A stretch of DNA of 64,000 bases from Massalongia carnosa. Its lineage: Eukaryota. The position numbers were made by a program, and so were the translations under genes. Where the stretch lies: NCBI GenBank assembly GCA_965645245.1, contig OZ287074.1:1302001-1366000 (forward strand), read 5' to 3'. Shown here piece after piece: positions 11,209-53,257 of the stretch; positions within the stretch are counted from its first letter, which is position 1; each line of letters starts with the position of its first letter. Under the pieces are notes generated by a model. The model ran no database searches. It was given only the letters and a program-made list of their open reading frames with translations, and had not been told where the DNA came from.

Positions 11209-11331
11209 GTTCGAGGGAAGTTCACCATGAAGAAAACGAAGGATTAAGAGGCTCAAGAAAAATACCTTTGCAAAAGGAGATTTTCTTTACATGCGCTTGC
11301 CCACAGACCACCCGCGCCACAGCGAAGCCAC

Positions 11332-31993: not shown

Positions 31994-33145
31994 CTACTGC
32001 TTGGATCCATTGGTAGTGTCGAAAAAGCTCTTTACACGTGCAATCACAATACCTTGATCTTCATCACTCAGTGTATAATACATCGGCAGTCGCACCAAGC
32101 GGTCGCTTTCTAAGGTGGTGTGAACTTCCTTGCCAGCAAATCGGCCCTGCTTCTGGCCCAGAGGCCGAGGGTGCAGCGGAACATAATGCGCTGAAGCCGT
32201 GATACCATCTTTCTTCATATGGCGAATGAATACATCTCGCTCTTCTTTGCTTTCTAGCCTGACGAAAAACATGTGCCCATTGTGCACTCGCCCCGCAGGA
32301 ACGACAGGAAGGCGCAGTTTCCCGGCCTCAGATAATGGTTGGAGCGCTGTAAAGTACGAGTCCCATAGTTGACGCCTCCGGGAGCTAATTCTATCCTCCT
32401 GTTCCAGCTGAGCCCAGAGATAGGCTGCTTGCACTTCCGACATGATGAAATTGCCGCCAATGTCGATCCATTCGTACTTGTCAACTTCCCCTCGGAAGAA
32501 TTGGCGCCGGTTGGTGCCGTTATCATAGACCACTTCAGCGCGTGTGACGAGGGATGGGTCGTTGATGACGACTGCTCCGCCCTGACCACCGGACGTGAAG
32601 TTTTTCGTCTCGTGAAAGCTGAAGCAGGAGATGTGGCCTATTGAACCTAGAGCTTTGGTCTTGTAGGTGGAAGTCAGGCACTGCGCAGCGTCTTCGACAA
32701 CGAGTAGGTTGTGCTTATTTGCCAACGCCATGATAAAATCCATATCGCATGCGACGCCCGCATAGTGAACCGGCACTATGGCGCGGGTCTTATTTGTGAT
32801 GGCAGCCTCAATCTTGGTATGATCCATGTTCATGGTTCCTTCCTCGATATCAACGAAAACCGCAGTAGCACCACGCAAAACGAACGCATTGACGGTGGAG
32901 ACGAAGGTATAACTTGGTACAATTACTTCGTCGCCCGGTTTGATATCCACCAGGATAGCCGCGACTTCAAGGGAGGAAGTACATGAGGTAGTTAGGAAAG
33001 CATTTCCACCTCCTAAGCGCTTTTCAATCCATTGCTGGCACCGGCGGGTATATTCTCCGTTTCCGCACAGGTGGGAGGTTTTCATGGCCTCCTTGATGTA
33101 GTCAACCTCGGTGCCGACGATAGGGGCCTCATTGAATGGTATCAT
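31994..33145 (-). CDS. wecE: (d)NDP-4-amino-4,6-dideoxygalactose transaminase (WecE/RffA, DegT/DnrJ/EryC1/StrS family), intronless
   Basis: MIPFN start, YTFVST.NAFVLRGA, VPVHYAGVAC, VVEDAAQ, CFSFHETKN (PLP lysine), GTNR.QFFRG.VDKY, QAAYLWAQLE match E. coli WecE motifs along the whole length. Confidence 0.93.
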   Translation of the reverse strand: MIPFNEAPIVGTEVDYIKEAMKTSHLCGNGEYTRRCQQWIEKRLGGGNAFLTTSCTSSLEVAAILVDIKPGDEVIVPSYTFVSTVNAFVLRGATAVFVDIEEGTMNMDHTKIEAAITNKTRAIVPVHYAGVACDMDFIMALANKHNLLVVEDAAQCLTSTYKTKALGSIGHISCFSFHETKNFTSGGQGGAVVINDPSLVTRAEVVYDNGTNRRQFFRGEVDKYEWIDIGGNFIMSEVQAAYLWAQLEQEDRISSRRRQLWDSYFTALQPLSEAGKLRLPVVPAGRVHNGHMFFVRLESKEERDVFIRHMKKDGITASAHYVPLHPRPLGQKQGRFAGKEVHTTLESDRLVRLPMYYTLSDEDQGIVIARVKSFFDTTNGSKQ

Positions 33146-33737
33146 TGTGCAGCGACTTGGAGAAGCAACTGTTCAGGGGCTTTGCGGAAGTCTGACAAGC
33201 CTAATTCAACCTTGTCCACTATCTTTTACACACAAGGAAAATCGGTCAGAACCCAAAAACCAAACAAAGAAGAGCAAACTATGACAGTCACGGCCTTTAG
33301 CAAAGAGTAGTATGCTGGAAAAAATGGAGCAGTTGAGGGTGAGTTTAAGTAGCGGATGAAGTCGTAAGGGTTACTCTAGATGCCAGCCAGGGGGAAACAC
33401 GATCTTAGGCGGGTAAGATTCACCAAGCTTTGCTAACATACCATCCTGCAAAGAAATACACTCTGCCTTGAAAGGACGGCCCTCGAGGCACTTACTCTAT
33501 GTATACTTCGTATTCTTCTTCTTCAAGGAAATACCATCACTAATGCTGCAAGTAGATGGATTGGCCTGACAAGGCATCGGATTGAATCAAACCAACTCAA
33601 CCTGCATCCTTAGCTGCATCTGCCTTGCAGGAAAATTCCCATCCGAAGGAATCCGGGGCCGTGCCTCAAGGCTTTCAACATATGGATCATATAGAGTATA
33701 CTTTGTAATCATTTAATCCGTCTCTCTGCACCTGCAT

Positions 33738-33769
33738 CGAGATAAGTCTGCAGCGAGATAAGCCTGCAG
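33738..33769. promoter_or_regulatory. 16-bp tandem duplication containing two AGATAAG GATA sites upstream of wecE
   Basis: CGAGATAAGTCTGCAG CGAGATAAGCCTGCAG, about 600 bp upstream of the ATG. Confidence 0.4.
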
Positions 33770-34574
33770 CGCGCCCCCTCGTTTCCGGTACTCTGGACAG
33801 TTGTGCATATAATCCCAGGGTCGCCAATCGCATAATCACCTCGCCAACATGAATCATCTGGGGTACGATACGAATCGTGGGTCGGTTTCTCCTACGGGGC
33901 TTAAGATCTCATCCCAAAACGCCATTATCACTAGGGTAGGTAAGGGAACGAACCTATGATAGGTACTGAGTAGCTATCTGTTACGCTAACCCTTGCCTTT
34001 TGTTATTTATTGCTTTATTTTCTTTTTTTTTCGTTTTATGTATACCTCTCTCCGCCATCGGAGACACCTTTAAAACGAACAAACTCGACGATACTCCCCG
34101 TACGGTGCTAGGAACGCCAACCAAAACCCGGTACGGTAACCAATAACGCATATACTCGTTCTTTCACTCATCCATCCATTTCCTCGTTTCAAGCCCCGCT
34201 TGCTTTGCATCCTCTTTGTTGTATCTTGCATCTCGATCTCTATACAGAATGCAGGTGTGTCTTACGCTTTTCTTTTCCAACCTGAGAGGTTGGGGGGGAA
34301 GGGAGGGGTTTACGTTGGATCTTCCGTGCTGTACGTGAGTTTTGCCTTTCGGCCTAATCCATAATACCGCGTAGGTGTGAAGATGGGAAGGAAGTGAAGC
34401 CGTCTGTCTGTTTATTTGGTTTTTTCAAGAACCTATTATGTGCCTACTCTATCTTAGCCGCATCGTCTCGCCTGGCACAAATATCCCGGGGGAAAAAACA
34501 ACCTTGTTGGCTATTCTAGTATCCACCTCCCTTCATAGGTCTCACGTTCCCTTCCCAACTACCCTCCCCTCTTA

Positions 34575-35827
34575 CTAACTTCCTCTCTTACCCTCCCCCG
34601 TCCACTCCCATAGCAGATCCTCGCCCGCACCCCGTACCAACACGTGAAAATGCTCCAAAGCGCCCACACTTTGCAGCGCTGTCCAATTCTTGAACCACAG
34701 AACCCGATCCTCGGCCGCCCCCGCTTCCTTGCCCTTCCCATCCCCGTCCCACTCCTGCTGCCGCTCCCGTGCCAGCCGCTTGACAAAAACGCGGTTCACG
34801 AACCCCTGCACTAGCGCCCACGCTTCCGGCACGAGGCTGCCGTCCGCGGTGTTCACGGCTAGGGGGGTCTTGAGCCAGACGACCATGTGGTCGATGTCGG
34901 GCGTGAAGCCGTAGGGCCAGTCGTTGCGGAGGATGCGGTAGTCGTGCGAGGATCCGAAGGGGGTGGGGTCGACGACTGCGAAGCGTGATTGCGGTTGTTG
35001 GGGTTGGTCTTGTGTGGCGGGTTCGGGCTGCCAGTGCAGGCGCTGCTGGCAGATGTAGGTCTGGATGCTGCCGTATTGGGCCTTGATGTCGCGGGACCAG
35101 GCGATGTAGCGGGCGAGCTGGGATGGGGTGCGGCGGAAGATGGAGAGGTCGTTTTTGGCTATTAGAGGGAGAAGGGAAAGGGGATCAAGCGGTAAGCTAA
35201 GTCGGACTGTTTGAGAGGATGGGGGGAAAATGGGGTTTTGGCTTGGAAAAAAAAAGCGAGTGTGGAAGAATATATATGAAGGAAGACAAATGGGGACGTT
35301 TCTTAAGGGGAGAAATAGAATGAATGAATCCCTCCTTCTGATCTGGTGCTCGCCGAAAGAAGATGGGAAAGCATGGGAAAACATGGTCGAGAAGCCTCCA
35401 TCTACGGGTAATTCTTATCCAGAGCACCATGGGGAAAAGAATAGAAAAAATAAAAGAAGGAAAGAACGGGAGGTGAAAATATCCTTCTTCTTCTTCTTCT
35501 TCCGCAATAGCAAAATCGGAGGGATCACTGCAAACAAGAACCCCTCCCCCTCTCAAAAATCCCCGGAACAGCAGAAAAATCAACGACGCCGCCAAACCAA
35601 CCAATATAAACCCCAAACCCCAAACCCAAAAAATCCTCAAACCATAAAAACCACGCACCGACAATCTCGCCCAACTCGGCCCACGTGTGCGGCACGAACT
35701 CCTCGTCCGTCTGCGACAGGATCAGACGATCTACATCCGTGAGGGGGAAGGGCGGGGGGGGGTCTTCTGGTTCTTCTTTATTTTGCGGGGGATCGACAGG
35801 GTGGGACCCGGAGGCCGGGTGGGCCAT
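34575..35827 (-). CDS. DUF3605 protein (GIG1-like, HIT-like HxH motif), two exons
   Basis: Exon 1 PPFPLTDVDR...PHTWAEL; exon 2 NDLSIFRRTPS, ILRNDWPYG, HMVVWLK, WFKNWTALQSVGALEHFHVLVR. Confidence 0.85.
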
Positions 35828-36215
35828 CTTGGAAGGACGAGACGGGACGGGAGGGAGGTCCGTTTGTCGGTTTCGGTGGTTTGCAGGTGCGTGATTTGGG
35901 GGGGGGGGGAGAAGGGGGGGAGAAGGGAGGAGTGTGTGTGTATGGGAAATGGAATGCAGGGGGAGAGGAGCGGCGTGTTGTGTTTATTAACTTGGTATTA
36001 TACTATGTTAGGGTTGAGATCCAAGAACCGATCAAACTTGACGGGTTTCCCCCTTACAAATAGTTACGATCAATACGCGAGATTTTGATCCCTCCGCGAC
36101 TGTACCTACCTACCGGCAAGTATTTACAGTATCCTCTGTACTGCAGGAGGTAGATGGTGATTTCAGGGAGTTATCTGAATGTATATGGGGGGCCGGGGAG
36201 ATATGGGGCAGGGAG

Positions 36216-36255
36216 AGCGTCCCGTTCATGCAGCGTCCCGTTCGTGCAGCGTCCC
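36216..36255. repeat. 16-bp tandem repeat (2.5 copies) upstream of the DUF3605 gene
   Basis: AGCGTCCCGTTCATGC AGCGTCCCGTTCGTGC AGCGTCCC. Confidence 0.8.
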
Positions 36256-38114
36256 ACGGATATTTGCTGCCTTGCAGCTAGTTTCCTCTCTTCGATACGA
36301 TCGGCCTGTATTACGTGTTTGCACCCCTCCATGATTGCAATGTGTACCGGAACGCTGTGCTAGAAACCGTACATCTCTGGCCCAATGTGCCGGATGAAAT
36401 CGAGCTGAAAAGTAGCGTTTCATATACCACTTGAAGCTTTAGTAGCTGGCTAACCTTGTGCTCCCGAGTTCGGAGGGCGATCCACCCCGGAAAAACACAT
36501 GTCTCCTTTAACCTCATCTTCCGTCAAACCCATAAACCTTGGAAACTACCTTGATCACCTCAGGCCTGACTAGCAAGTCCTGTTCTTCAAGGTTCTTGTG
36601 CGTTTCTTTGAGATATGGCTGCGTGTGGTGGTTTTCGAGTTCGACTTTGGACGCCCATCTATCACCAACTTGGATTTAGCCCATCCTAGCTGTTATTGGG
36701 CCATGATCTCCTTTTGAAATTCAAGCTGTGATTACGAAACAAAACATGTTTTGATAACTCAATGTAATGAGAAGACAACACAGAATACAGCAGGTAGACG
36801 GGGAGAGAAAAGTTTGCCGAGAACGGGCAAGAAATTGGAGAGGAAAGGGTGGGTGAGAGGGAACACAAACTCCTCGATTAGCACCAAATCTGGCACACCG
36901 CTTTCGTTATCCTTATCATGTTGCATCCAGACCGCATAGCGTAGGCACCCTTTTTCGTTTTCGTGAACATTTTTGGCAAGGGAGACAAGGATTTCTTGGA
37001 CCTAGGGATTTGTGGAGGGATCTTTTAGTTGTTGATAGCGTGAGAAGAGGGAGAAAAAAAGCGGGGAAGCTAAAAAAAAAAAAGTTCGAGACCATCAATC
37101 AAAAAATGAATGCGAAGGGCTTCAGGGATTCGAAGCAGAAACTGCAAGAAACAAATATCAAAACCCTAAGAGAAACGAAGATTGGGGAGAAGCAAGAAAC
37201 CAAGTGAGGAGACACATACGCGCTCGACCTTCCCAGCACGGGGCGAAAGGATGCAGACCATATTGACCGTATCTGACATCTCCCGCGCTGAGTTACGATT
37301 GAATGATTGGAAGCGGCCTCCTTTCTGACCCGAAATATTCGCGCAACCGATCTAATCTGGTTTCTTTGCCTGGAAAGACTCTAAAGTGCTCAACTGTTTC
37401 CAAGAAATCGACAAGGGAACGGCCTGAATAGTAAACACGAAGGGAGGGGAAATCAAACGAATCAGGCTTGCTATAAGATTTTCAAAGGGGCGTTTGTAAA
37501 GGATGGGACGAAAAGATACCGTGGTGGCTGTACTCGCTAGGATGTATGGTAACGGATTCTCTCTACCCAGTTTAGAGTATTATGTATGACCTTTCACCGT
37601 ACTTTGCAGGAGCACGGTCTAAGACGACAAACCCTTCCCATTCCCAGCCCGGCGGTCTTTCATGAACGAGCCAAGTGCCATAGATTCCGCCAGGTGCGGG
37701 GAGGAGCGCAGAAGAGTTGGAAGCGTTCGATGGCGTGATGTCAAGATCACGGAAAGTCTGCGGGGCTAGTGATTGATCGCATTGCTAGTTCATGCACATG
37801 CTAGCTGGAAGCTTTTGCACTTGCAGAACCCCGTAAAATAAAAATTCTCGCAACGCTGCACTTTGTAATCTGTACATGGTTATGATTTGGGCGTTTATCA
37901 TCAACTTGATGGAGCGCCGAGGAGGTAATGTGGATCCTTGCGTCCAAAGTTGCTTTGTTCCAAATTCATTTCATTGGTGCTGCTTAACGAATGCAAGACT
38001 TTTCCCTCTCCGTCTATTTCTAGTCCTTTTCCTAATTGAATTTTCATTGGTTTCGGACATGCCCCCAGGATCCTCCGACTTCACAACCTGTTCTCTAGCC
38101 TATTACCACTTGAG

Positions 38115-39434
38115 TTAGGATCCACCGTTCGTTTCTACACTGTTCGCGGTCGTGCCATTCGTAGCTACACCGGAGGGATTTGGATCAGACATTGGCACCC
38201 CCTTCGCAAAGACCTTCCCAACATCACCCCACCAGGTCTCGCCGTAGGCGGAATACCATGCAGCAGTTCTACGCAGGCCCTCTTCCATGGAAACGGTCTG
38301 CTCCCAACCTAACGACCGTAATTTGGAACAATCAAGACCACTGCCACGATCGTGAAAAGGTCGATCGGGCGCCGATTGAATCCATGCGTTCACATCAGTG
38401 GGACCAGGCGGTTGGATGAGAGTTAGAAGAGTAGAACATAGAGCTTTGTTGGTCAGCTCGTCTGGAGAGCCGAGATTATAGATTTCTCCGCCGATGCCGC
38501 GGTGGAGGAGGACGTTAAAAGCGTTGGCCGCGTCGCCGGCGTATAGATAGCGTCGTGTTTGATTGCCAGCCCCATAGAGCGGAAGCTTGAGGCCTCGTTT
38601 GAGCATCATGATGAATTTAGGGATTATCTCTGGACGTATCGTCAGTATATTCATTTCTGGATCTCGGAACATGCTGCATACTTTCAGGGAACTGATTTGG
38701 ACCGTAGACATTGTTGGATCTGACAATGATTGTTTCGAGCTCGTGAGTATTTCCAAAGGCTGTGACGAGCATTTCAGCTGCAGCTTTGCCTGCGCCATAG
38801 GGGTTCACAGGAGAGAGAGCACTGGTTTCTACATGGCCACTAGGACCAGCTTTCGTCGCTCCATAGGCCTCATACGATGACATGTGAATAAATCTCTTGA
38901 CACCGCAGGACTTGGCACTCTCCAATAGAACCTGAGTGCCATGGATATTCGTACTGGCAAACGCAAAAGGGCTAGTGAAACTTGCGTCAACAGAGGAATT
39001 TGCAGCTAAGTGAATTATGGTGTCAATATCGTGTTTGCGTAAGCACCTGGCAATGTCGTCTGGAGAAGTGATATCTCCTTGGAAAAAGGAAAAGTTTGGC
39101 CGTCCCTCAAGCATCTTGGTATTGTTCAGCGATGCGCCATAGTCCAGCTTGTCGAATGAAACGATTTGGTAACGTTCTGAGTAAGTGATAGCCAATGCGC
39201 GAATTACCCAGGACCCTCTAGCCGTTTATCATAAGCCGATTGCAATCTTCAATAAAGGAGTGGGGGAGGGCTGATAAATCAGGGGAGGTTGAGTTCTTGA
39301 CATATGAAGACATACATGAATCCATTGCCACCTGACACCATAATGTTCTTGACGCCGGTTGAAGGCGGAAACTTAGTGGTTTCATTGAGCGTTTGCTCAT
39401 CGATCAAGTTGTTGACGGGAGTCTTGAAATCCAT
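38115..39434 (-). CDS. NDP-glucose 4,6-dehydratase-like extended SDR (RmlB/TGDS family), 3 exons
   Basis: VSGGNGF(I) Rossmann motif, FDKLDY, IHLAANSSVDASF, NPYGAGK (YxxxK), RSNNVYGPNQFPE|KIIPKF, DRPFHD. Confidence 0.9.
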
Positions 39435-40235
39435 CGTTGATGAATAGAGAACCTTGAACACCACGAAGTCGTATGGCTAAACGTTTAAATCGATAGCTGA
39501 TGCAACGGTGGCGAGGACAATCCAATTTTATAATGTATGGATTGTGGTCCAGCCTCCTTGATTGTACCAAATATTGCGGGGACTGTTATTGAATAGCGAA
39601 ATGCGTTAAGATATGCAAGGCTATACAAGCTATGACAGGTAGCCCTCCCGGACCTCGTCCACAATAAGTCAACAGTTCAGTATCTTATTAAGGATAATTG
39701 TGATATTTTCTCGAGGGGTAGATGCACGAGGTAAGGCGCTATGTCTCCTCATTGACCGTTTAGATGCATATTCTGCAGAGCTAGTTCGTATCCACTGTGA
39801 TTGGCGTAAGTCTTCGGTCAGCCCAGTCTCTGTGTCTTCGGAGCTCATCTGCTGGGTAGATCTGATGGTAATATCTTGCAGATGATACGTTTGTTTGTTT
39901 AACGGAATCACCAGTAATTCTTCATATCTGGTGAGAAAGTAGAAAATTAGGTAGATAGAACGAAGCATACCCGGTACCTTCAGATAAGCAAATTTTGAGT
40001 CCATGGCGATATACCGAAAGACAATGAAGCGATAAGGGCTGCAGAAGTGACTTTCAAATATGTGGTACATATGCAGAGGGCGCTTGGTAAAAGGAAAAAA
40101 GTCAGAAACAGCTCATATATCATTAATGGATCCTGTAAATGGCAGGGGGAAAAGTCAATACTAGAATTAACAAAGAGTAATCGGGGCAACATATAATTTG
40201 TCAACACATACTTATTTAATACCTGCCAGATTTCA

Positions 40236-42279
40236 TCAGTATCCTGCAGGCTCCTGCTGTGCAGGAAATGCAGATTTTTCTAAATTCGACAAGCATGCTT
40301 GTTTCCAGTTGATAGGTGTGAACTTGTCTACAATTCTTTTGAAAGCTTCCTATAACCGTTTTCTATAATCAATAGAGTTGAATGTGATTTTAGTCTGATG
40401 GGTTATACAACTTACAAGCGTACAAAAGCTCTCATCCTCCTTCCAATGATCTCCCATTGTCTTACAGCCAGGAATGACTACAGGTCTGTCATTGTAACGA
40501 AGGCGTACGTAGAAGTCGCTCATATTTGCTGATGGAGAGCCGTTCACTTCCCTCACCAATCTCTCTAAAGCAATGCATATGTTAGTTTGAGTCCTTGAAA
40601 CCCTGCGCCAGGATATAGTTAGCGGGAAATACCTGGTTGTAGCTGTTGCTTTTCTGGCAGTTGAGCTGGTCGATTAGCATTCGGGCTGGAAGTAGATGTT
40701 TGTTGGCGTTGAGGGATTGGATCTTTGAACAACTCCACGGCTATAGAAGAAGTATAGGATGGCCAACCACCATTTTTGCCCTCCAAAGTGCCCAATGAAG
40801 CTAGCATGGCAGCAAGGGTGGAATCATGACCCCCAGACAAAGTGAACTTCAGAGGAGCCCTGTCGTCGCAGTTATCTTCATGATGCTCACCATATGTTCT
40901 AGCCATATGGAGGCTATCCGGTTCATTGTTGTGGACGCTCTGTATCATACGCTGGACGACTTCTCCGAGTAAGGCGCCTATACCAACAGTCCGATATTCT
41001 AGACTCTCTTTGTAGCCAGAATATTCCTCTTCTACTAAAATTCGGTCAATCATCTGGCGAGCTTTCGCATCATAGAACTCTTGAGGAAGATGAGTTTTGG
41101 AGCTCGGGGTTGCGAGTGTTGAATTGATTGTATCGTAGATGCCATGCAGCCGAGGAACCGAATTCACAGCGACACGTTGTTTTGCTGGCATCCAGCGTTG
41201 TATCAGTTCATTCACATAGCTCATCTCTTCCGACGAATCCCCTGTGTTGTGAGTTAGCTTGCATAGCGGGGTAGCCTCATCGATACTGTATTCACATTTT
41301 TCAGCGGTTCTTTGCGAGAAGGCCTTGAGTAACTGTTGCAGTCTCAGACAATGATCCTCATTGGGCAATAGAGTCTCGTCTGATATAGTCCGTGTGACAA
41401 TCACAGGCTGACGAAATCTTGCGCCTCTGGCGTAAGGGGGGTAAAGCTCCGAGAAAGTTTGCTGCAGAGAATCCAGGGCACGTGGAAATGGAGAAGCTCT
41501 TAGATAGATTGTGGACGCATCATTAATCACCTTGGGTAAGAAGCCTAGCTGATGCACATACAAATGGCGAAGCCGTTTTCCTAAAGCTGATGTTGTCTGA
41601 CGCCCCTTATCTGTGATTTCGGCCAAGTTGCTAGGAAAATCTTAGCCATTGGCCATCATTCTGACACTCGTACGTCTACCAGATGGCGTCCTCCGCTTCA
41701 GCTCCGTTAGAGGAGAATTGCACTCTATCATTTTCAGATGTTTTCAAATGTCGTTTCCATTCAAAACTACCCCAGCTATGGATGTCATTGTTGCTCATAA
41801 CAATACTCATCATATGTCTGGCGGAGTTACAGTATGGCCAGACTGATATCCAGTCAACATCTCAAGCAGACATATTCTGGAAGACGAAGAGAGTGACGAT
41901 ACGCACAAGCAGGGAGACCAGTCTGAGACAGGAAGATCAATGCCCCATGCTATCTAGAAAGTTTAAAGCTCACTCACATTTTGGAATCTTGCGACCTCCG
42001 GAGTTCTCTCACCTACAGAAACGTGTTAGCATATGTCCAAAGCATATGCTGAGATTCACGTTTTGAAAAAAATGAGGCTATACCATGCCGCATAAACTAT
42101 TAAACGTACGTCGAAATTAGCAAATCAAAGAGCATGTAACATCATACTTCAACTTCATTACCCGGACGAAGCTTTTCTTTGGAACCTACAACTTGAACGA
42201 GCTGGAGCTGCAAATTCTTTGGGTACAAATGCCGCAATTCTTCATCGCTGTATGGAGGTCGAGGCTGAAGAGTTGTCAT
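40236..42279 (-). CDS. Histidine acid phosphatase, multi-exon
   Basis: N-terminus MTTLQPRPPYSDEEL; spliced RHG|ERTP; ITDKG, LRASPFPRALDS, GHDST proton-donor motif; ends EPAGY*. Confidence 0.9.
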
Positions 42280-43735
42280 GATCGTGCTGTCAAGACGTCC
42301 TTGGGTTGAAGTTAATAACGTTATGGATATGAAAGAGATAACGATATCTGAATTACTTGAGAAGCTAAATATCTAGCTAGAGCGTATATGAAAAAGCTGT
42401 CTATTCCCCTGCTACTTTGGGCAAGACTACCTCATGCGGTTAGATTTAACCCGAAAAAGGGAAGGCGGGTTGCGGAACAGTACTGAATTATCAAATAATG
42501 CGGAGAGGACGCCGTACGGAAAGGACCAAAAAGAGGCACCTCACTGCGAGCATGCATTTCATCGTATGATATCGTAAAACTTTGCAGGCCTATTAATCAT
42601 ATCAACCATAGTCGATATCTCGAAACTTGCGTGCTTTTTCGCCCGTTTGCGGTGGGGGGAGGAGGTCTCTTCGCGAAGCATCAGATTTTCTTTGAAATCG
42701 TTCATAAGAGGTTTAGCGCGGACTCGATTGGGTTTACGGTACCTATCATAGCCTTTTCACCGCAGCTTTTTTCTATTTCAAGGTAAAGAATCTTCTCCAT
42801 CGCAGCTCCCTTCATGATGATGATGATGTATTCATACTCCGATATGACACCGGCCGTAGGCCGACCCATGCGGGCAAAGCTATCTGTCAGATAGATGATG
42901 ATGGGCGAAGACCTTGCTTGCTACTACAGAAAAGGGAGATGACTATATACAGAGTGACAGGGCTGAGGGCCGAGCTCGCTTAGTAATGCCCACTTTTGAC
43001 ACTATCTAAGTTATGTTACATGGAAAACCTTTCACAGGTGTAAAAACCATATCCCTTGATACCCGTCCGATGTGACTACGGGTCGACGTCGGGCGGGAGA
43101 CGCAGTGCAAAAGACGTGTGGGAACTGTAATGCCTTGTGAAAAGAGAAGAAAGAAAGAAAGGTTCAACTATTGTTGATTGTACAATAATGTTGATGCTAG
43201 TGAGAATTGATTCATTAAGCCTGTTTTCATTAGCCAAGCAATTAGTATCTTCAGAGTTTTTGATGATTCGGTCAGCTGCTGATAGTCGCTCGTGCCGGCG
43301 GCGCGAAACATCTGTTCTCTATTGTCAATAAGTCTGCAGAACATGATTACATGTTCTGGAGTTTGTCTGTGCCAGCCACATGAGCAGCCGGTGAGGTGAC
43401 GGAGGGCACCCGTCGCTTATAGAGGAAGTCAGCTAACCCGATTTTGCCAGTGCGGAGAGCAGCTCCCTTCATCTCAGCCAGCTAATAATTCTTTCTATGA
43501 CCCTTATCGGTGCCGTTACCTTCGCTTGCGCTGGGGGGGCTTTTAATTGGATGAATTGATTTGAATGCTTGAATTTGATTGGGCATGGGAACGACACAGG
43601 TCAGCCCGGGCAGGCCTAGGCACGTGACTCGGGGTCGGTGCTGAGGTGAGAACCTCATCTTCTAGGCCCGAGGCGTCTGCTGACGCTCAACGATCCGATA
43701 GATGATGCCCGACGGCAGTGCCCGACGGCGATGAT

Positions 43736-44902
43736 CTAGATGGAGGTGCCCGGCGGCGCTCCGGATCGATGCCCTGGTTGACCTGTACGCCCAATGGAAT
43801 GCCCAATTGAGTAGGGGTAGGAGTTTGTAGGATTCGTCTCGGCGACGATAGCACGTGGGACTGCTAGAGGGATGCCTTTTTGAAAACTGAGGTTCAAATT
43901 GAATAGTGAGGCCTGGGACGTCTGAAAGTATAGCTGAAACGCGTTTGATGACCATCTTCCAAGTCTCTGAATACTCTCATCCAGCATCCCGTGGTCGGCG
44001 GCGTGTTGTGCTGCTCCTTTTCTGAAGCTGTGTCCCGAGTATGCCGAGTCGTTGATGCCGGCGGCTATCAGTCTCTTTTTCAGGGATGCTATGACGGAGG
44101 CTCTGGTGAATGCGGTGCCGAGACGAAAAAGCGGGGATGTAGATGGCTGAGGATCATTTCTGAAAAGACGCCGTAGTGCTGTCACGGGGCAAGTGCTCTC
44201 ATTGGTCGCTGCCAGCACTATCTGAACTCCTGAGTGATTTGTGTCTGTTTTGCTTCTTTTGAGACGTAATGTCGCGTATTGATCGTTCTCGGCGAATGAG
44301 ATGTCACCTCGTGTAGGTTTCAATCTCTGAAAAGATGTCTTCTTACGATCGGCGACAGTGTAGGTGATTTCCCCGAGTCTGAGGAACCCTGCCCATGCAA
44401 CTTTGAATGTCGCGTCGATGTTGAGGTCTTCGGCCGAATGAGCGGGAATACTGGTGATTTTTGTCAGTAATTCTTTTGAAATGGGTAGGCGTCTTCTTTT
44501 TGTCTGAGAAAAGATCCTTTTTCCCCCTTTCAGCATCAATTGAAGTCTCGGCCCCTCGAATGGGGTGAGGCCGTATCCTCGGTCTACATGGTATGATCTG
44601 AGGCCGGCGAGGTAGCTCGCTGCCGTCTCTGGTTTTATCTTTCCCTGCTTGGGTGTGCCGCCCCCGTATAGTCGACCGGCTAGCCATTCCTCGAGGGACT
44701 CGGTTGTTGCAGGCCACGACGTGCGTCCCGTCGTCGCGCAGAATGCCTCGTATGAGTCGATCGCCGTCCCGTACCCTTTTCTCGTGTCCGCCGAGTGTCC
44801 GTGCCAGACGAGGCGTTTTACCAGGGCTGACCCTGGTGTGGAGGATAGGTAGGTGGAGGGAGGTTCATCGAATTGTATGGGTTCCGCCAATGAGGGCAAA
44901 AG
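43736..44902 (-). CDS. Tyrosine recombinase of the retrotransposon
   Basis: Catalytic set intact: FLRLGE (R), KRSKTD (K), GHSFRKG (HxxR), LGRWSS (W), FQLYF (Y). No AUG before residue ~121. Confidence 0.93.
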   Translation of the reverse strand, partial: LLPSLAEPIQFDEPPSTYLSSTPGSALVKRLVWHGHSADTRKGYGTAIDSYEAFCATTGRTSWPATTESLEEWLAGRLYGGGTPKQGKIKPETAASYLAGLRSYHVDRGYGLTPFEGPRLQLMLKGGKRIFSQTKRRRLPISKELLTKITSIPAHSAEDLNIDATFKVAWAGFLRLGEITYTVADRKKTSFQRLKPTRGDISFAENDQYATLRLKRSKTDTNHSGVQIVLAATNESTCPVTALRRLFRNDPQPSTSPLFRLGTAFTRASVIASLKKRLIAAGINDSAYSGHSFRKGAAQHAADHGMLDESIQRLGRWSSNAFQLYFQTSQASLFNLNLSFQKGIPLAVPRAIVAETNPTNSYPYSIGHSIGRTGQPGHRSGAPPGTSI

Positions 44903-46521
44903 TTAGCCAATCTTTCATCATCAAAACGTGACAGGGCATCTGCTAGTCCATTGGAAGTGCCACTGATCCATTGACAACGTAGTACGATGTCCCACTTTGC
45001 AGCTATGGACAGTATTTCTCGTAGAGGCGCGTTGGCCGGTCCCTTGAGGGTTAGATTCGTGAATCCTGTGTATGCTGTGTTGCTGTCGGTAAAGACAAGG
45101 ATCTGTCGATGTCGCCATGTCGGCGCCCATTTCTGAAGGATTAGAAGGATAGCCTCGACTTCTCAGACGTTTATGCTCGGTGATTCTTCCTGATTGAGGA
45201 CTAGGACTCGGGCCCTACATGCGTTTTTTTGATTCACGAGCTCGTTGTCTTGTTGAAAATAGCCTCCGAGACCCGTGAGGCATGCATCCGTATGCACCTT
45301 GATCGTGTCTCGTGTTGACGTCTCGAAGAAGACAATACCGTTGAAGTCCACTAAAAGTTTGTTCCACCAGATGAGATCCTGTCTGACCCATGTGGGAATT
45401 CTTCTTTTGACCCGACGATGACTGCCCGAGGGAAATGAGGCTATAAAATTCCAGAATAATCGTAAGAAGACTCGGCCCAATTTGACTGCCTGTGCGCAGA
45501 AGCTTAGGAAGCCCGCTATTGACTGCATGTCGCCGAGGCTGATTGTCGTCTCGTTTAGTGCCTTTGTAGTGATGATTCTCGCTTTTTCCAGCTTGTCCGC
45601 TGGCAGACGAATAAGACTGTTGATAGTGTCGACCTCGAGTCCGAAGACTGTCGCTGTCGTTCCCTCGGCGTCTTTTGAGTCGTTTCTCGCGATGCCGAGA
45701 ATGTCGGTGAGAATGTTGTAGGCTTTTGTTTCTTGGTGCAATCGTTCTGACGATGTCTCGGATGGGAAAATTGCAACGAAGTCGTCTAGATAGTGATGTA
45801 ATCTCCATTGTAGAAAGGATTCCAAAATCCAATGAAAGCCTTCCGCAAAAAGATTGAAGATGAACGGGGCCGTCGACAGTACGAACGAAAGGCATGTCTC
45901 GGTGTAGAATTCGTCATTCCATCCGAAACCCAGAAGCCATTGATGATGAGGTGCGACGGGAACGTTTCGAAAGGCGTCTTTGACGTCTCTTTTCACTATG
46001 ACAGCACCTTTGCCCTCTGACAGAATCAATTGACTAATGTCGTCGAGTCTGGCGTATTGTAATTTGGATGCCTCTTCTGGAATGTTGTCGTTGACTGATG
46101 TTTGATTGGGATGAGACAGATGATGAATGCGTCGCCATCCTCCGTCATGTTTCGGGACCAAGCCGAGGGGGGAGGCCACAAATGGCTGACTCGGGGCGGC
46201 TATTCGTCTGACTCGGCCCTTCCTGAGGTCCTCTTGAAGCTTATTCTCGATCGTTTCCGGGTCCTCATTCACTGATGTCAGATTTTTTTCGATCCGAAGG
46301 ATGTCTGTGGGGCCTTCGTATCCGATTTGTACTCCGAAACGAAGGATCATGGGCAGATGGACTCGGAGGGGGCCCGGATACTCTTGAAGTAGAGTTGCCC
46401 ATGCGGACGGTACGAGGGGAGATGGGCTGTCTTTCAAACGCTGACGAGATGCGTCTACGAGTTGAAACGAAGGGATTGTATTTGGTCTGATTGGTGCAGG
46501 TAAGCAGGGATGGGACGTCAT
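44818..46521 (-). pseudogene. Reverse transcriptase-RNase H (pol) with one in-frame TGA at 45163-45165
   Basis: VPKHDGGWRRIHHLS, KRDVKDAFR, HYLDD, HTDAC; the frame continues past the stop as SINV*EVEAI...FTDS...NGLADALSR to TAA at 44818. Confidence 0.9.
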
Positions 46522-46566
46522 GAATTCAGCTATTGAAGCTATTCTACTGCCTCCTGCACCAACCCC

Positions 46567-47580
46567 CTATTTCTTCGTTGGGCATGTCTTCTGGCCATGC
46601 CCAGCCGCGCCGCACGATTTGCATTTGTGCTGTCGGTAGCACGACGGCCAGGTGCAGGTGCCGCTGTTGTACTTGTCGCAGATTTCCCCCGCTGCCTTCT
46701 CGGCCCTCTCGGCCCTGTCTCCTCTCGGGATCGGTCGTCGGGACGGCGGGGATCGTGAGCGGCGACGGCGTAGGACTGTGAGGGGGGTGCAGAATCGAGC
46801 TTGGAATTCGTCGGGCATTTTCCATTGGGATGCGTCGGATGGCTGAGACGCGATGATGTGGGCGTGGGTTTCGATGGCGAGGGGGAGGACTGCTTCCTGC
46901 CACTCGTACACCTTGGCCAGCGTGAGGATTTTTCCGTGGAATGCCGACATGGTGGCGTGAAGCTGTTGACTCGATTTCCCGAAAAGACTGACCATGATCG
47001 AGGTGTAGTTGATGAAGCTCTCGGTCCAGACGTCATGAACTGTCTTTCCGAAATCTTTGTAGGTCCCGGACGCCTTTCTCAACCTCAAGGCGCCGTCTTC
47101 AATGCCGATGCGGTCTTGATCCTTGTATGACTCGTATTGCATGCCGTGCATGTGTCGGAGGCGGGAGAGGTTGATAGCTTTGAATTTATTTGAAAAGATC
47201 TTGATGATCTCGTCCTGTGGTAGGCCCGCGAAACGGGGTGCTATGCTTCTTACTTCGAGAGGGATCTCACCTAGGTCCTCGTCGTCATCGCCGACGACAC
47301 GACTCGGCTTGCCAGCAGGAATGACGACCGCTATTCGGGCGTCAGATTCTCGGCGCATGCAGTCGATTTCTAGCTGCATTTTTTCCACCTCCTTCTCGGC
47401 GACCAATGCCTTGGACTCGGCAATTCTAGCCTCAGCCTCGGCCGCCTTCGCTTCCGCCTCGGCTTTCTTCTTTTGTAGGGCGAAGATTTGATTGGATTGG
47501 GCCTGCGTCAATCCGACAATCTCCTGGGGGTCGGGGACTATGTCGTCCATCAAGGTGCTTTGGGAACGGGTGTTCGTCAT
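46567..47580 (-). CDS. Gag-like ORF1 with coiled coil and C-terminal CCCH + CCHC zinc fingers
   Basis: CDKYNSGTCTWPSCYRQH followed by CKSCGAAGHGQKTC; first ATG at 47580. Confidence 0.85.
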   Translation of the reverse strand: MTNTRSQSTLMDDIVPDPQEIVGLTQAQSNQIFALQKKKAEAEAKAAEAEARIAESKALVAEKEVEKMQLEIDCMRRESDARIAVVIPAGKPSRVVGDDDEDLGEIPLEVRSIAPRFAGLPQDEIIKIFSNKFKAINLSRLRHMHGMQYESYKDQDRIGIEDGALRLRKASGTYKDFGKTVHDVWTESFINYTSIMVSLFGKSSQQLHATMSAFHGKILTLAKVYEWQEAVLPLAIETHAHIIASQPSDASQWKMPDEFQARFCTPLTVLRRRRSRSPPSRRPIPRGDRAERAEKAAGEICDKYNSGTCTWPSCYRQHKCKSCGAAGHGQKTCPTKK

Positions 47581-47583
47581 TGG

Positions 47584-47706
47584 GAGGTAGGGGCACCGAG
47601 ACAACGTGAGGTCGACGACGAGTCAGTGAGATTGGAAAAGCAGCAAGCACTGACAGCGAGGTAGGGGCACCGAGACAACGTGGGGTCGACGACGAGTCAG
47701 TGAGAT
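47584..47706. repeat. 49-bp direct repeat in the retrotransposon 5' leader
   Basis: 47584-47632 and 47658-47706 differ at one base. Confidence 0.92.
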
Positions 47707-47869
47707 GGATGAGGCCGAGTGAGAAGAAGTGGATGAGGAAAGAATTTTCAGAGGGTGATTCTTAATTTACTTTGACTCAGGGGCCTCACGTGACATAGAA
47801 CCTTCTCATCTATTTTAGCTCTTCATGTCTCAACACGTTTTTGCTCTTACTCAGGCCTCCGCACGTTCC

Positions 47870-48400
47870 GTAAATCAAATCGAACGATGCCGCAAACATA
47901 TAAACAATAAGAAAAACTCGCCGTACGGCGTTTTTCGGGTAAGAATTCTTATTTGAATTTTGACGTTTTGATTAATTATTTCATTAGGTGCAAAAACAAA
48001 CTCCTGTTATTTATTCGCGATCCTGTTTTGTTTCTTCAGACGCTCTCATTTTTTCTTCTATCGTTATCGAGTGCAAAAATAAAATATTTATCGCTCGCAC
48101 GGGAAACGCTTGCTGAATATCAACGTGAACTCGATACAGGAATGTTAACGGAAGATATTTTGACGAAAAAAATTGACGATGATATAGATAAGACTCGAGA
48201 CGGACGAGCTTATAATCACGTCAAACGACATATAATAGAAAAATCGTGTTGAAAGGGAGAAAATGGAGTTGATTATTTTTACGCTTCTAGAGTGCCTTAT
48301 TATCGACAGCTTCGAGAAAATGAACGAATTCAAGATGCACGAGATCAAAAAGCTAAAGAAGCTATCTGAAAAGCGACGGAAAAAGAAAATTGATAACAGA
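47870..48400. mobile_element. Degenerate AT-rich repeat relic (RIP-like)
   Basis: Sharp drop in GC relative to the neighbouring element, many surviving C in CpG, broken reading frames; family not identifiable. Confidence 0.5.
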
Positions 48401-48409
48401 GGAGATAGA

Positions 48410-48820
48410 TATTGAGGTTATTCAAGAGGCTATCTGATAGCTATTTGGGAAACTATTTGGGAGACTATTTGAAAGGCTATTTGAAAAGCAGCGAAGATTA
48501 TCTGAGAGACTATTTGAAAGGCTAATTGAAAAGTTATTTGGGAGGCTATTTGAAGAATTATTTGAAAAGCAGCGCAGAATATCTGAAAGGCTATTTGAAA
48601 GGCTATTTGAGAGACTATTTGAAAGCGGTGAAGACTATCTGAGAGGCTATTTGAAAGGCTTTATGCGAGGCTATTTGAAAGGCTATTTGGGAGGCTATTT
48701 GAGATGCTATCTGAAAAGCAGCGGAGACTATTTGGGAGGCTATTTGGGGAATATTTGGGAGGCTATTTGGAAGATATTTGAGGAGATAATTGAAAGGCTA
48801 TTTGGGAGACTATTTGTTGA
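48410..48820. repeat. Degenerate 12-bp minisatellite (GAAAGGCTATTT / GGGAGGCTATTT)
   Basis: Many GGCTATTTG/GACTATTTG units at about 12-bp period, with interspersed AAAGCAGCG variants. Confidence 0.9.
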
Positions 48821-49790
48821 AATAGGTGTATGACTATGGCTATATGGCTATGTAATAATAAAGGTATGTATGACCGTGATGTTAAGGATGAAGAGTTGCT
48901 AGGCAGCAATCTTTTCCTATTACTGGTCACCCCCTTCTAAGCGAGGTGATCTTATCTTATCTTGGGACTAAGCCTAATGCGGCATCTACGGTTTCCGTAG
49001 ATGATCTGTCCATCTAGGGCAGCCGTAGGTGCTATGTTCATCTTACTGATAGGTGTTCATTGTGCTGGTAGGAATTGGATATTCAACACTATTTGAAAGA
49101 TGCTTTGGCGAGTGCCAAGGAGGAGATGGCGCAGGGCCGTTGCGGAGCGAAGCGGAGCAGGTCCGGAGCAGAAATCAGAGATATTTTGAGATTCGCATGA
49201 AAAAATAGCAAGCCAAATAGTAGGTAAATGAAAAGTAGTAGTAAATTAGATTTTTTCATTCGAAACATCTCAGGTCTGAGATGGCACTGTCTCGTATATA
49301 TACCCTTGAGAAGCGAAACGGCTTGCATGACCCTAGAGGCCGATAATGCATCCTAGATGCATTCTCATAATATTAGGGTGTTTTAAAGAGGCCATGTTGT
49401 TAAGGGAATCTAGCTCCTAGGTACATACCTATACCTCCGTTAAGGAGGAAAGATTGTCAAATACGTATGGGTTTGTCTTTTTGGAGTGCTATATAAACTA
49501 GTGACTAGTAAGATAATCCAGCTCTTCATTGAGAATGGTACTGCAACTATCACATCGGTTCATACTACCGTAAGTACTCTGTACAGAGCACCACCAGATT
49601 ATGCTATGAAAAAGATTGCTGCGCTATTGTACTTTACAAACGAGTAAAACTCATTGTCATCAACTTCGTTAAACACTACCCCGCTGAATTTTCATAATAC
49701 CGCATGATAAAATCACTATCGTTGTGGCTCAACATACTTTTTAGATTTCTATCCGTATTAATCGAAATGGTCTTTATCCTGCCAACTATC

Positions 49791-51628
49791 TCATGGTCCA
49801 CTGAAATCTCCATGCATCTTTCCCTTTCTTTTCATAGATCCGCCTGTGTAGTAGAAAACTGGTACACCTCCCAGAAGACAGAGACAAGCCAGCGTGCCAG
49901 CAGTGATTTGCCAGTCAGTTTTCTCGAAAAAAAAACCACTCCATGCTGGTCCAAACACCGTGGCAAGTCCCAGGGCAGCATCAAAGAGGGAATAGGTTTG
50001 TGCGAACGCGCCTACTTTCCCAAAGGTATTTGGGTTAGCTTCCGCAAGGACTCCAACTTCATAGAACATGTCTGCAGCAAGCGGCGCAAGGATGAGGTTG
50101 AGACCAATACCTGCAGAAGCTTTTAGCTACGGTAATTTTTAAGTCTCTGGGAGATTTACCAATGAGGACGAGCAGGACCGCTAGCAAAATTTTATCACCC
50201 ATACGATCATCCGTAACAAATCCCATCAGCGCAAGCGAGGGTGTAGTAAGGACAAATCCACATAAGGCGATAGTCTTGGTACCATAGCGGTCTGAAAGTG
50301 CGCCGATAACAGTACCAAGCAAAGAAGGTATCGTTATGGCTAAGAATATCAGGCCCGCACCCGAGGAAGTCCAGTGGAATGTACGTTTCACGAATAGTGG
50401 AAGAATCGCATCAAAAGAGGCAATAAGAACGGTATGAGTAAAACAGCCATAGACTGCTGCCCTGAGCCGTGGGGAGCGTAATAAAATGGTCATTATTGGA
50501 AATTTCTTAGCAAACCATGATTTGGTGTGTTGTGGGGCATGAAGCAGTGAGGAGGTCTCATCAGGCTCCGATACCTCTTGGATTGATTCGCTCCCGAACC
50601 CAGTTGAACTACCTTCTGATTGAGAATTGCTATCACGGGGTGGTATAGGCTCGGGCTCTCCACAGTTGGTCTCCTCAGCCCAATTTATGTAGCTATGAGC
50701 TTCATTCGTGAGCCATTTGGCTGCTCTTTTTTTCTCAACCATAACTATCCTTAGGATGAAGTCAACGCCAATCACCCCCAGAACGACGGCGAAAACAGCA
50801 TAGTAACCTGCTCGTTCGTAAATAACGCCGGCCAAGAAGGGGCCGATAAGAGCACCCAGGTTCATTCCGCTTAAGATGAAACCCATCCTAACGGCGTCTT
50901 AGCAAGTTCACCTATCTTTACATTTAGGAGGACAGTACCAAGACCCGACCTCCTCGGGACGAACTGTGTCCGCGATGAGGGCCAGACCAGCGGTGTATAT
51001 GATACTAGCGGAGAAGCCTTGAAAAGCCCGTGCAATTACTAGAACCCACGGAGCATGTCCTATGCAAAAGAGGACCGTGGCAACAAACGCAAGGACAAGT
51101 CCTACAAGGAAAGGGATTTGTCGAGATGAACTTCGATCGGCAGCCCAGCCAGCGATTGCTAAGAATCGTTAACGACTTTGGTTTGGTAGTAGCTGAAAGT
51201 TATCCTACGAGCACCGAGAGCCATTGTGATCCCGAAGACTATCAAAAGCGTTGAGAGCCAAAATTGAACTACAAGAGGTTATACCAAAGAACATAAACAT
51301 CAAGATTACCAGGTCAGAGCATACCATCTTTCTCCGGTACCCCCAATCGATCCACCAACGAGAAGGGCAAGACAGGGACGACCTATATGGTTCAGCCAAC
51401 GGCGAAGGGCTTGCATAAGTTGGACCTACAGTCGAGTAGAGGAAGCCATCCTAAACACAGAATATCAGTTTCATTGCTTAAAAGGTTGCGATAGCTGAAG
51501 CTGCTGACAGTAAAGGCCGCGACAAATGCGGTGATTCCAATCAGTCCTTTGGAGGATCTGATTTTAAGCCAGACTGGAGGCTTATGCTCATGGCACGCCG
51601 GCGCAAACGGTTCCTGTGGTTCGATCAT
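49791..51628 (-). CDS. MFS transporter (vesicular amine transporter-like), multi-exon
   Basis: WLKIRSSK N-terminus, GWAADRSSSR, ARAFQGFSA, MGFILSGMNLGALIGPFLAG, GALSDRYG, AQTYSLFD. Confidence 0.88.
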
Positions 51629-53257
51629 TGTCTCGACATCCGCTTTCATGTATAAGTGTGAAAAGAGTTCTACAACCACAAGCCTCAATGACTGAGCCGT
51701 TCAGCGCCGAGGATAATGATCGCAGAAAATATGCAGGCTGGAAGCAGCATCATGTGCATTACAGAAAATAAGTTACAGGGTACCTAATTACGCAATACTC
51801 TGTAACCGGGTTGAAGTTTCTCATACATCCAGGGACGCTTGTTCATTTTGGGAATTATGATTATTCCACTCCACTTCCCTGTTCTATTCAGAAGTTAGCC
51901 TAAAACCGGAAAGGGTGAGAGGTTACCAGGGTTAGTTAGAGTTAAGGTTGATCAACTTACTAGCTCTGTATCTCTTGGCCTTTGGCACCGACAGATCGTT
52001 ACCCTGTTCATGTTACCGCTCCACCTGAGGGTCCGGACTATTATCCCTGATATCATGACATAACTTTCCGAGGGGCAAGAACGCCACCCGTTCTACTGTA
52101 TTTGCAGGATCGAATTAAGAGTTTCCAGCCGAGCCTGAGCCTCTGTCAGCTGAAGCATGGATCGGATATAAAGTACTCCATACCTGGCTTAAGATTACGC
52201 CACATTCTGTACGAAAGGCAAAAGGTCAAGATTGAGGCTTCTATGAACTCTTCATAGTCTCACCGCTTCCAACGAGTTCATCCAATTGATTTCAACCCTT
52301 CCCGGTGCTAAATGTAAACTGCTGAGAGTTTTGGCTGCCTGTCAGATAGGAGAATCGTTATTTAAACCTTCAGCATCTTATCGTTTATGAAGCTGGATTA
52401 GCCCACAGGGATATCAAAAGCAGCGTAACCAAGATTGTTGCCGATGACCCACTACTGCAGGCTATGTACGGAAGTTACCACTTTGACTATCATAGTAATA
52501 GTATTTGATTATTATAACAATAATGATACAAATTTGGATGACACTTGAAAAATATTAAAATCTAACCGAGTGAAAAACGCTGTCTACTTAGTAAGTGCAT
52601 GTTCAACACTAGATAACTTTAGCACTAGCTTGCAGTAGTCTAGCATGCAGTATTGGATTATCAAAGTCTCAGAAGCGAGAATGGATTTCGCCTAGACAGG
52701 TCTAGACTGCACACTTGAGGATGCATCCTTCAGCCTTCATGCATTGAGCTTCTTGTGGGATGGATGACGGCGTGACTGAAGCACTGGGTCTGAGAGGCCA
52801 TTGCGCCAGAAAACTAGGGACTGCTAAGAGAGAAACGCTTAGAGGCACCATCCTCTGTAGATGCGATGAATGGTAGGCTACTTTGTACAAACTGAAACAG
52901 TTGACCCCTATGCGATGCACAAGCTCTACAAGAATAACAAATAGACAACGAGATGGTATAAATGCATAGGTACCTTATTTAGGTTCTCCTTGTAAAACAG
53001 AAGGTTGTATTATTACAGAGTACTTGTCATGTCCTCGCGCTTTGTTTGCTCAAAGTTGCTAGTAAGTATACCATGAAACATATCTTAGTTTTGGTGAACA
53101 GATATTCTGGAGGAACACACAAAGTCTGCATCTCCGGTGCGAGTTTGATGGTGGCTCTTTGATTGTATCACCTAGTAATCGATAGATGTAACTGAGAAAG
53201 TGGCTGGACAATTAACGGACGCCCAAAGGAAATCCTTAAAAAGGAGCAAAACGAACC

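Follow-up and report, generated by a model that had tools for sequence, protein, structure and literature searches.

The window analysed here is a 64,000-nucleotide stretch of Massalongia carnosa (GCA_965645245.1, OZ287074.1, positions 1,302,001 to 1,366,000) and lies on C8, one of the contigs of a fungal genome of 52 Mb. It carries three core genes on its minus strand, encoding a WecE-type sugar aminotransferase, a short-chain dehydrogenase/reductase (SDR) related to RmlB, and a protein of the DUF3605 family. These genes, and the two codons of the SDR that are most informative about its chemistry, were located as follows:

31994..33145, minus strand: WecE-type pyridoxal 5'-phosphate (PLP) sugar aminotransferase, 383 amino acids, intronless; core gene
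34575..35827, minus strand: histidine-triad protein of the DUF3605 / GIG1 / HTC (histidine triad with channel) family, 250 amino acids, exons 35827-35659 and 35158-34575; core gene
38115..39434, minus strand: SDR of the RmlB fold for nucleoside diphosphate (NDP) sugars, 'SYE' subfamily, 389 amino acids, exons 39434-39316, 39217-38682 and 38629-38115; core gene
38872..38874, minus strand: codon of SDR Tyr155, in the place of the Asp that serves 4,6-dehydratases as catalytic acid (D135 of E. coli RffG)
38340..38342, minus strand: codon of SDR Ser315, aligned with Tyr299 of E. coli GalE, a position that is Tyr in canonical dehydratases

The trio is a real, conserved and undescribed three-gene variant of the known pathways that combine an SDR with a DegT-family aminotransferase, and the three products very probably form a functional unit. 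Read from right to left, the order on the minus strand is a major facilitator superfamily (MFS) transporter, a repeat block, a phosphatase, the SDR, a small ABM-like gene, DUF3605 and WecE, and the spliced frame is open in each of the six models. The genes had been described as consecutive in the first-pass annotation; the shared strand was confirmed, and the ABM-like gene at 37279-36514 intervenes. The interval 31900-42434 was recovered without differences in a 30-kb contig of run X1, which possibly derives from the same source sample, and the genes were covered with few differences in run X4, a lichen metagenome of another study. Since one contig is identical and a second study covers the same genes, the region is no assembly artefact.

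The aminotransferase passed the cut-offs of both PRK11706 (592.5 bits; cut-off 375) and TIGR02379 (582.6; cut-off 434.85), and these scores bear out the WecE-like transaminase proposed at first. Its closest structure in the PDB was E. coli WecE (E 1.9e-158), to which it is 63% identical (61-63% to the WecE proteins of Enterobacterales), and a search of the ESM Atlas returned bacterial WecE clusters. Among the best 120 of 7,933 matches, 36 proteins, including that of the window, were not Enterobacterales-like (P0001-P0031, P0050, P0065, P0098, P0103 and P0117), and the one named source among them was the lichen fungus Peltula. Together with L012 they formed one clade, with support in the Shimodaira-Hasegawa-like approximate likelihood ratio test (SH-aLRT) of 100 in one quick tree and 90 in the other. 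They are called fungal-type on account of their place in this tree, the naming of Peltula and the introns in the genes next to WecE at L018, a related locus of another fungus.

All 36 fungal-type proteins kept K181, D152, H320, Y321, Y224, R213 and R352 (E. coli numbering), which include the PLP lysine, Asp152 and residues of the nucleotide site. Comparison with L012 gave a nonsynonymous divergence (dN) of 0.15 and a synonymous divergence (dS) of ~2.1, and this dN/dS of ~0.07 establishes that the gene has been kept under purifying selection in fungi. The simplest reading of the trees is one old transfer from bacteria to fungi. In the tree with the clade support of 100, in which 42 of the 84 bacterial-type rows were used, the fungal-type clade was sister to Enterobacterales (98); the other, with ArnB as outgroup, gave an open three-way fork. 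Relative to E. coli WecE, the substitutions E188Q, S232N, E208D and P53T were present in 36/36 fungal-type sequences and Q155P in 27/36, and E188Q possibly reflects a changed sugar pocket. Among the 44 window frames scanned there was no operon context of the enterobacterial common antigen (ECA; rffC/wecD, wzxE, wecF) and, as had been noted earlier, no glycosyltransferase or WecD-like acetyltransferase.

The SDR had been taken for a canonical NDP-glucose 4,6-dehydratase feeding 4-keto-6-deoxyglucose to WecE, a link the first-pass annotation regarded as its strong part, and this assignment fails at the catalytic motif. The protein has the extended-SDR fold with GxxGxxG and [ST]xnYx3K, and it keeps the triad S154/Y180/K184 together with E156. 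The acid/base pair [ST]DE is absent (TDE to SYE), so that the SDR reads S-S-Y-E where solved RmlB 4,6-dehydratases read S-T-D-E. In UDP- and dTDP-glucose (uridine and deoxythymidine diphosphate glucose) dehydratases, Asp is the acid and Glu the base of this motif, and no [ST]YE is listed in Table 1 of PMC8987622 (excerpt). The [ST]SE motif of GDP-mannose (guanosine diphosphate mannose) 4,6-dehydratase is also lacking, S-Y-E being found instead, with the Glu present. Among 271 homologues, 249 read TDE and eight SYE; homologues of Psora testacea and Zopfia rhizophila share SYE. A clade of 15 non-TDE SDRs (SH-aLRT 98), nested within the fungal dehydratases, comprised SYE sequences and seven further variants (SGE, SGT twice, SAE, SAD twice and SAM), five of which lack the Glu base. 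YxxxK was intact in all 15; this clade has therefore conserved the redox triad but not the dehydration pair. Within the SYE group, a derived subclade (P0402, P0405, P0407, P0410, P0413, P0463 and P0491) has lost the Tyr and often the Glu as well.

A second departure from the canonical enzymes lies in the NDxRY motif, whose conserved Arg-Tyr is replaced by Gly-Ser in the SYE subfamily. The Tyr of this motif aligned with E. coli GalE Tyr299 in all three MAFFT modes; the column held Tyr in RffG and in six of six canonical fungal enzymes, and Ser or Gln in five of five SYE enzymes. Replacement of GalE Tyr299 by Ser or Cys admits UDP-N-acetylglucosamine (UDP-GlcNAc) (excerpts of PMC5349592 and PMC12820599). 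Across exon 2 the SDR was 53-59% identical to fungal UDP-glucose 4,6-dehydratases. The predicted structure of the Psora orthologue P0139 (predicted local distance difference test, pLDDT, 91.8) matched RmlB structures best; a fold of the exon alone (pLDDT 66.9) was set aside. The ESM Atlas returned generic dehydratase clusters, and no relative of the SDR was found in the two candidate viral contigs scanned. Phylogeny and motifs together establish that the SDR is a paralogue of the fungal UDP-glucose 4,6-dehydratase that has lost the dehydration acid and kept the redox triad. The idea of a hybrid between an intron-containing fungal SDR and a bacterial-type WecE is thus supported.

The third protein matched Pfam PF12239 above its cut-off (E 2.7e-47), its only PDB match was yeast YPL067C/5KCI, and the three histidines of the family are kept, in agreement with the earlier description of a histidine-triad-like DUF3605. 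The family is that of the HTC proteins (PMC5028414, excerpt), and GlcNAc induces GIG1 homologues in Candida and Trichoderma, while in Yarrowia they are co-regulated with the GlcNAc genes (PMC12176254 and PMC8658026, excerpts). In a tree of 68 of 122 rows, the window protein was a vertical orthologue of Aspergillus 'GIG1 family' proteins. A duplicate dedicated to the cluster was considered and rejected, as the linked copies form no clade of their own in this tree. A second, distant DUF3605 is encoded on C4 of the same genome.

The linkage of the three genes was then compared among fungi. At L018, DUF3605 and WecE share a strand, DUF3605 being the next gene upstream, and the contig ends inside WecE; the flanking genes are unlike those of the window, yet the adjacency is kept. 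The metagenome scan from which this locus came gave two fungal loci among 10, and usable flanks in L018 alone. In Zopfia, the SYE-type SDR KAF2184545.1 and the DUF3605 protein KAF2184540.1 are encoded on one scaffold, five accessions apart. Further co-location was judged indirectly, by equal size in bp of the longest contig listed per protein, with the DUF3605 set consisting of the best 120 of 263 matches and exon-length SDR fragments being reached via 50%-cluster representatives. Seven of 71 WecE contig sizes equalled one of 119 DUF3605 sizes (mean of 0.12 under a jitter null, with a maximum of 3 in 20,000); these matches include one 3,445-bp contig, and the 15,993 match represents the L018 lineage. 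Two of the 71 equalled one of 20 non-TDE SDR sizes (null 0.03), and two of these 20 equalled a DUF3605 size, one pair being P0407 and the DUF3605 protein P0340. Linked WecE-DUF3605 pairs are spread over several branches of the WecE tree, and the SDR-DUF3605 linkage includes a Dothideomycete. Taken together, these sequence comparisons establish that WecE, the SYE-type SDR and DUF3605 recur together. Co-localised homologues across fungi, proposed as a check, were accordingly found, mostly by indirect evidence, in about seven other lineages for WecE with DUF3605 and on two other contigs for WecE with the SDR; the phosphatase and the MFS transporter of the window were lacking at L018, the sole readable related locus. 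The suspicion that the genes beside the dehydratase-transaminase pair were bystanders likewise stands for the latter two, which have no linkage support, and becomes unlikely for DUF3605, the best-documented partner of WecE.

Several observations weigh against such a conserved association. No SDR was found in the 3.7 kb upstream at L018. The control in favour of the association, in which none of 114 canonical dehydratase contig sizes matched, is weak, its assemblies being mostly other than those of the WecE set. Most WecE sizes had no match to DUF3605 (64/71) or to the SDR (69/71); these misses are uninformative because 120 of 263 DUF3605 matches were listed, the SDRs were reached via representatives and only the longest contig was given. 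No WecE from Zopfia or Psora appeared among the best 120 of 7,933 matches. DUF3605 groups with ordinary vertical orthologues, with many close matches from Aspergillus and Onygenales, groups without a WecE among the same best 120 matches, and it may simply be an old neighbour of WecE. These points touch on passive microsynteny, in which WecE would have landed beside a housekeeping GIG1 orthologue, the genes would be independent and the SDR a drifting paralogue. Consistent with it are the vertical descent of DUF3605 in place of a cluster-specific duplicate, a linkage that is not demonstrable for most homologues, and the failure to find a shared promoter motif: an Ndt80-type motif occurred twice in seven upstream regions, the background rate being 0.61 per kb, and comparison with blastn-short gave no conserved upstream element. 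Passive microsynteny is nevertheless improbable. The adjacency of WecE and DUF3605 has outlasted a change of flanks between the window and L018, linkage recurs across several WecE branches and, for SDR and DUF3605, in a Dothideomycete, the SDRs of Zopfia, Psora and the window share SYE as a fixed motif, and WecE requires a 4-keto donor for which the genome searches gave no other candidate.

The genes are regarded as a conserved module for nucleotide sugars that occurs in lichen-forming ascomycetes and in some others, and the product of the trio is probably an amino sugar for which no fungal description exists so far. The route that we favour, whose probability we place just below one half, would consist of three steps. 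The SDR would catalyse NAD+-dependent oxidation of a UDP-hexose or UDP-GlcNAc at C4 without dehydration, the C6 hydroxyl being retained; WecE, with PLP and glutamate, would trap the resulting ketone by amination, giving a UDP-4-amino-4-deoxy sugar of galacto configuration if the stereochemistry of E. coli WecE holds; and DUF3605, by its histidine triad, would cleave the nucleotide and so pull the unfavourable oxidation forward. UDP-GlcNAc and UDP-glucose appear about equally likely as substrates. The induction of GIG1 homologues by GlcNAc and the Ser wall of the SDR lean to UDP-GlcNAc, and the ancestry of the SDR leans to UDP-glucose.

This route has its weak points. The GalE gatekeeper rule was derived from sugar-flipping epimerases and may not transfer to the SDR: in a non-flipping enzyme, a wall of the GalE Tyr299 type may face C6, and the change from Tyr to Ser may just make room for Tyr155. 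Extended SDRs usually bind NAD tightly, and turnover would therefore require release or recycling of NADH. Moreover, the SDR may still dehydrate, with Glu156 alone or with Tyr155 as acid, and WecE would then make UDP-4-amino-4,6-dideoxygalactose or its 2-acetamido form. All nine SYE sequences, among them that of the window, keep the Glu, and Glu by itself suffices for dehydration in GDP-mannose dehydratase (PMC8987622, excerpt), so that dehydration is conceivable; TunA, which has a Cys/Glu pair, is a 5,6-dehydratase, and dehydration would be redox-neutral and need no NAD recycling (same excerpt). The SDR also descends from fungal UDP-glucose 4,6-dehydratases, the top fold matches of the P0139 model were RmlB-type dehydratases, and the native substrate of WecE is annotated as a 4-keto-6-deoxy sugar. 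Against this stand the Asp found in 249/271 homologues and in 47/47 canonical rows of alignment A2, the lack of any dehydratase with Tyr at this position in the excerpted table of PMC8987622, and the clade-mates that are also devoid of Glu, one of which shares its contig size with a DUF3605. Dehydration is thus considered unlikely, and oxidation without dehydration is retained as the preferred reading.

Searches of the whole genome, whose counts for RmlB-like and epimerase/reductase genes are lower bounds, revealed no second RmlB-like gene and no canonical 4,6-dehydratase. Four matches to PF04321 included no rhamnose epimerase/reductase, and the epimerase/reductase half of the plant-type RHM P0425 gave no match when used as query; the absence of the UDP-rhamnose enzyme, noted earlier for the window, thereby extends to the genome searches. 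The locus L005 was rejected as a rhamnose epimerase/reductase, being MAT2B-like. Detoxification of UDP-4-keto-6-deoxyglucose, another role suggested at first, is unlikely, since these searches revealed no canonical enzyme that makes the compound. It is toxic in Botrytis (PMC5698552, excerpt), and such toxicity would favour a close coupling between any enzyme that releases a 4-keto sugar and its trap.

The trio might also run in reverse, as a Leloir-like salvage or detoxification in which DUF3605 would move uridine monophosphate onto a scavenged bacterial 4-amino sugar 1-phosphate, WecE would deaminate it and the SDR would reduce the 4-keto sugar. By established chemistry, an SDR that has the redox triad only is favoured in the direction of reduction; GlcNAc, which induces GIG1 homologues, is a catabolic cue, and the 44 window frames scanned held no glycosyltransferase or acetyltransferase. 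The same frames, however, held no sugar kinase or glycosidase, and transferase activity is not reported for HTC proteins in the excerpt of PMC5028414, which makes salvage quite improbable. A further alternative resembles ArnA/ArnB: the SDR would oxidatively decarboxylate UDP-glucuronate to UDP-4-ketoxylose, and WecE would give UDP-4-amino-4-deoxy-L-arabinose. The RmlB-like decarboxylase EvdS6 ranked sixth in the fold search, four matches to the UDP-glucose/GDP-mannose dehydrogenase family were found in the genome (on C7, C9 and C6; L041, L042), the two C7 scores being identical, and ArnA, CalS9 and AtmS9 release a 4-ketopentose for PLP enzymes (PMC10338323, excerpt). In a register set by eye, with ArnA placed differently by the three MAFFT modes, the decarboxylase Arg of ArnA (R619) falls on Ser315 of the SDR, which speaks against decarboxylation; the argument is softened by the R279A variant of EvdS6, which still yields the keto product (PMC10338323, excerpt). 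We consider this alternative very improbable.

Within the preferred oxidation route, one distinctly unlikely extension deserves mention. UDP-GlcNAc would be converted to a UDP-4-amino-4-deoxy-N-acetylhexosamine, a sugar without the O4 of the chitin chain that would act as terminator or chitin-synthase modulator, and the Gig1/HTC protein would be a nucleotide-cleaving safety valve. If true, this would define a new class of non-dehydrating 'SYE' SDRs, give the Gig1/Htc1 family its first biochemical function and possibly account for the requirement of Gig1 in normal sensitivity to nikkomycin Z.

The remaining features of the interval surround the trio:

36514..37279, minus strand: ABM-like small gene, ~111 amino acids, three exons, open GT-AG model
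40236..42279, minus strand: histidine acid phosphatase, ACP6-like, ~525 amino acids; probably a bystander
42435..49267, minus strand: high-copy repeat block with a DIRS/Ngaro-type tyrosine-recombinase retroelement; outside the module
47622-43736, minus strand: gag-like, reverse transcriptase and tyrosine recombinase frames of the retroelement, with RVT_1 and XerD-like profile matches
49791..51649, minus strand: MFS transporter with a weak match to vesicular monoamine transporters (VMAT), ~513 amino acids; probably a bystander

The phosphatase gene was confirmed by a Pfam His_Phos_2 match and the RHGE and HD motifs of the model; its PDB matches were acid phosphatases and ACP6, and a paralogue with 48-57% identity is present on C14. 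The transporter is an MFS protein as annotated, and its amine type is weak, the best PDB match being vesicular amine transporters at E 5.6e-4; 10 further matches were found in the genome, the best at 57%. For the short 5' exons of both genes several alternative models are possible. Both had been proposed as possible pathway members, to release and export the sugar. They have no linkage support, have paralogues elsewhere in the genome and are missing from L018, which carries a different, oppositely oriented MFS gene (862-2691, minus strand); they are probably bystanders, their membership being unsupported rather than disproved. The divergent MFS gene of L018 suggests that a transporter may be recruited independently, or is there by chance. 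The ABM-like gene, overlooked earlier, had a weak match to the Pfam antibiotic biosynthesis monooxygenase family (ABM) on exon 2, below threshold (E 0.034), and is absent upstream of DUF3605 in L018.

The transposon block reported between the phosphatase and the MFS gene proved to hold the tyrosine-recombinase retroelement. At least 36 near-full copies with 98-100% identity were found, self included (36 scored of 149 candidates), and read depth jumps over the block; these copies mark the element as a recent insertion outside the module. Its frames at 45163-46566 and 44921-45214 are split by a stop in the window copy, and an array with a 12-bp period (~22 degenerate copies) lies at 48418-48836 inside the block. 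Run X4 gave no cover across 43852-47171; as no contig bridges the block, an empty site is not implied. Farther along the window, the aldo-keto reductase family assignment holds. The gene at 53258-54455 (minus strand), annotated as a helix-turn-helix protein, has just a weak Tc5-transposase helix-turn-helix match (E 0.026) and may be a transposon relic. Frames at 22835-25751 (minus strand) match Methyltransf_33, DinB_2 and FGE-sulfatase and presumably encode an Egt1-like ergothioneine synthase. A single-subunit, mitochondrial-type RNA polymerase gene (6751-11286, minus strand), DcpS (~16261-16992) and a PIR1-like wall protein (26902-27714) are also present.

No description of a fungal WecE or of a fungal 4-amino-sugar nucleotide pathway was found among the papers listed in searches of open-access PMC and bioRxiv; subscription journals and supplementary tables of horizontal gene transfer could still list the gene. 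The trio includes a bacterial envelope enzyme recruited into fungi once, apparently long ago, and an SDR subfamily that resembles 4,6-dehydratases without their catalytic acid. It places the uncharacterised Gig1/Htc1 family beside nucleotide-sugar enzymes, and a three-enzyme assay could therefore probe the function of that family. The module may further hint at a so far unknown amino sugar among the glycans or metabolites of lichens.

Among known systems, E. coli RffG and WecE, which supply dTDP-4-amino-4,6-dideoxygalactose (dTDP-Fuc4N) for ECA, share the aminotransferase residues and the RmlB-fold SDR partner. They differ in that the SDR of the window is fungal, intron-bearing and devoid of the catalytic Asp, that neither wecD/rffC nor a flippase or transferase is found among the 44 window frames, and that E188Q and S232N are fixed in the fungal-type WecE. 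In the RifL/RifK/RifM kanosamine route and in the AprD5/AprL system of apramycin, both bacterial, an NDP-hexose is oxidised and transaminated and the amino sugar released; the kanosamine route oxidises C3 with a Gfo/Idh/MocA dehydrogenase. Here, unlike in those routes, release would fall to the HTC protein. The phosphatase and MFS genes of the window, which would be the counterparts of the conserved phosphatase and exporter of a kanosamine-type cluster, are absent at L018, the sole readable related locus.

The SDR derives from the dehydratase family of the fungal UDP-rhamnose pathway (Botrytis; PMC5698552, excerpt), from which it differs by the changes from TDE to SYE and from Arg-Tyr to Gly-Ser, and the epimerase/reductase was not found in the genome. 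As proposed here, a C4-oxidising SDR hands a ketone to a DegT-family enzyme in ArnA/ArnB, CalS9 and AtmS9 too (PMC10338323, excerpt); those enzymes, however, decarboxylate glucuronate and have a conserved Arg apparently absent from the SDR of the window. Candida Gig1 and yeast Htc1 are DUF3605 proteins with the same three histidines, for which the excerpts of PMC5028414, PMC12176254 and PMC8658026 report neither enzyme partners nor substrate, nor any hydrolase or transferase activity on nucleotide sugars, whereas DUF3605 here adjoins NDP-sugar enzymes. Finally, the transfer of mviM/wecE to dinoflagellates also brought a bacterial DegT-family gene with a dehydrogenase partner into a eukaryote; that aminotransferase is of the FdtB/QdtB/DesV-like subfamily, its partner belongs to Gfo/Idh/MocA and its host is not a fungus (PMC2064935, excerpt).

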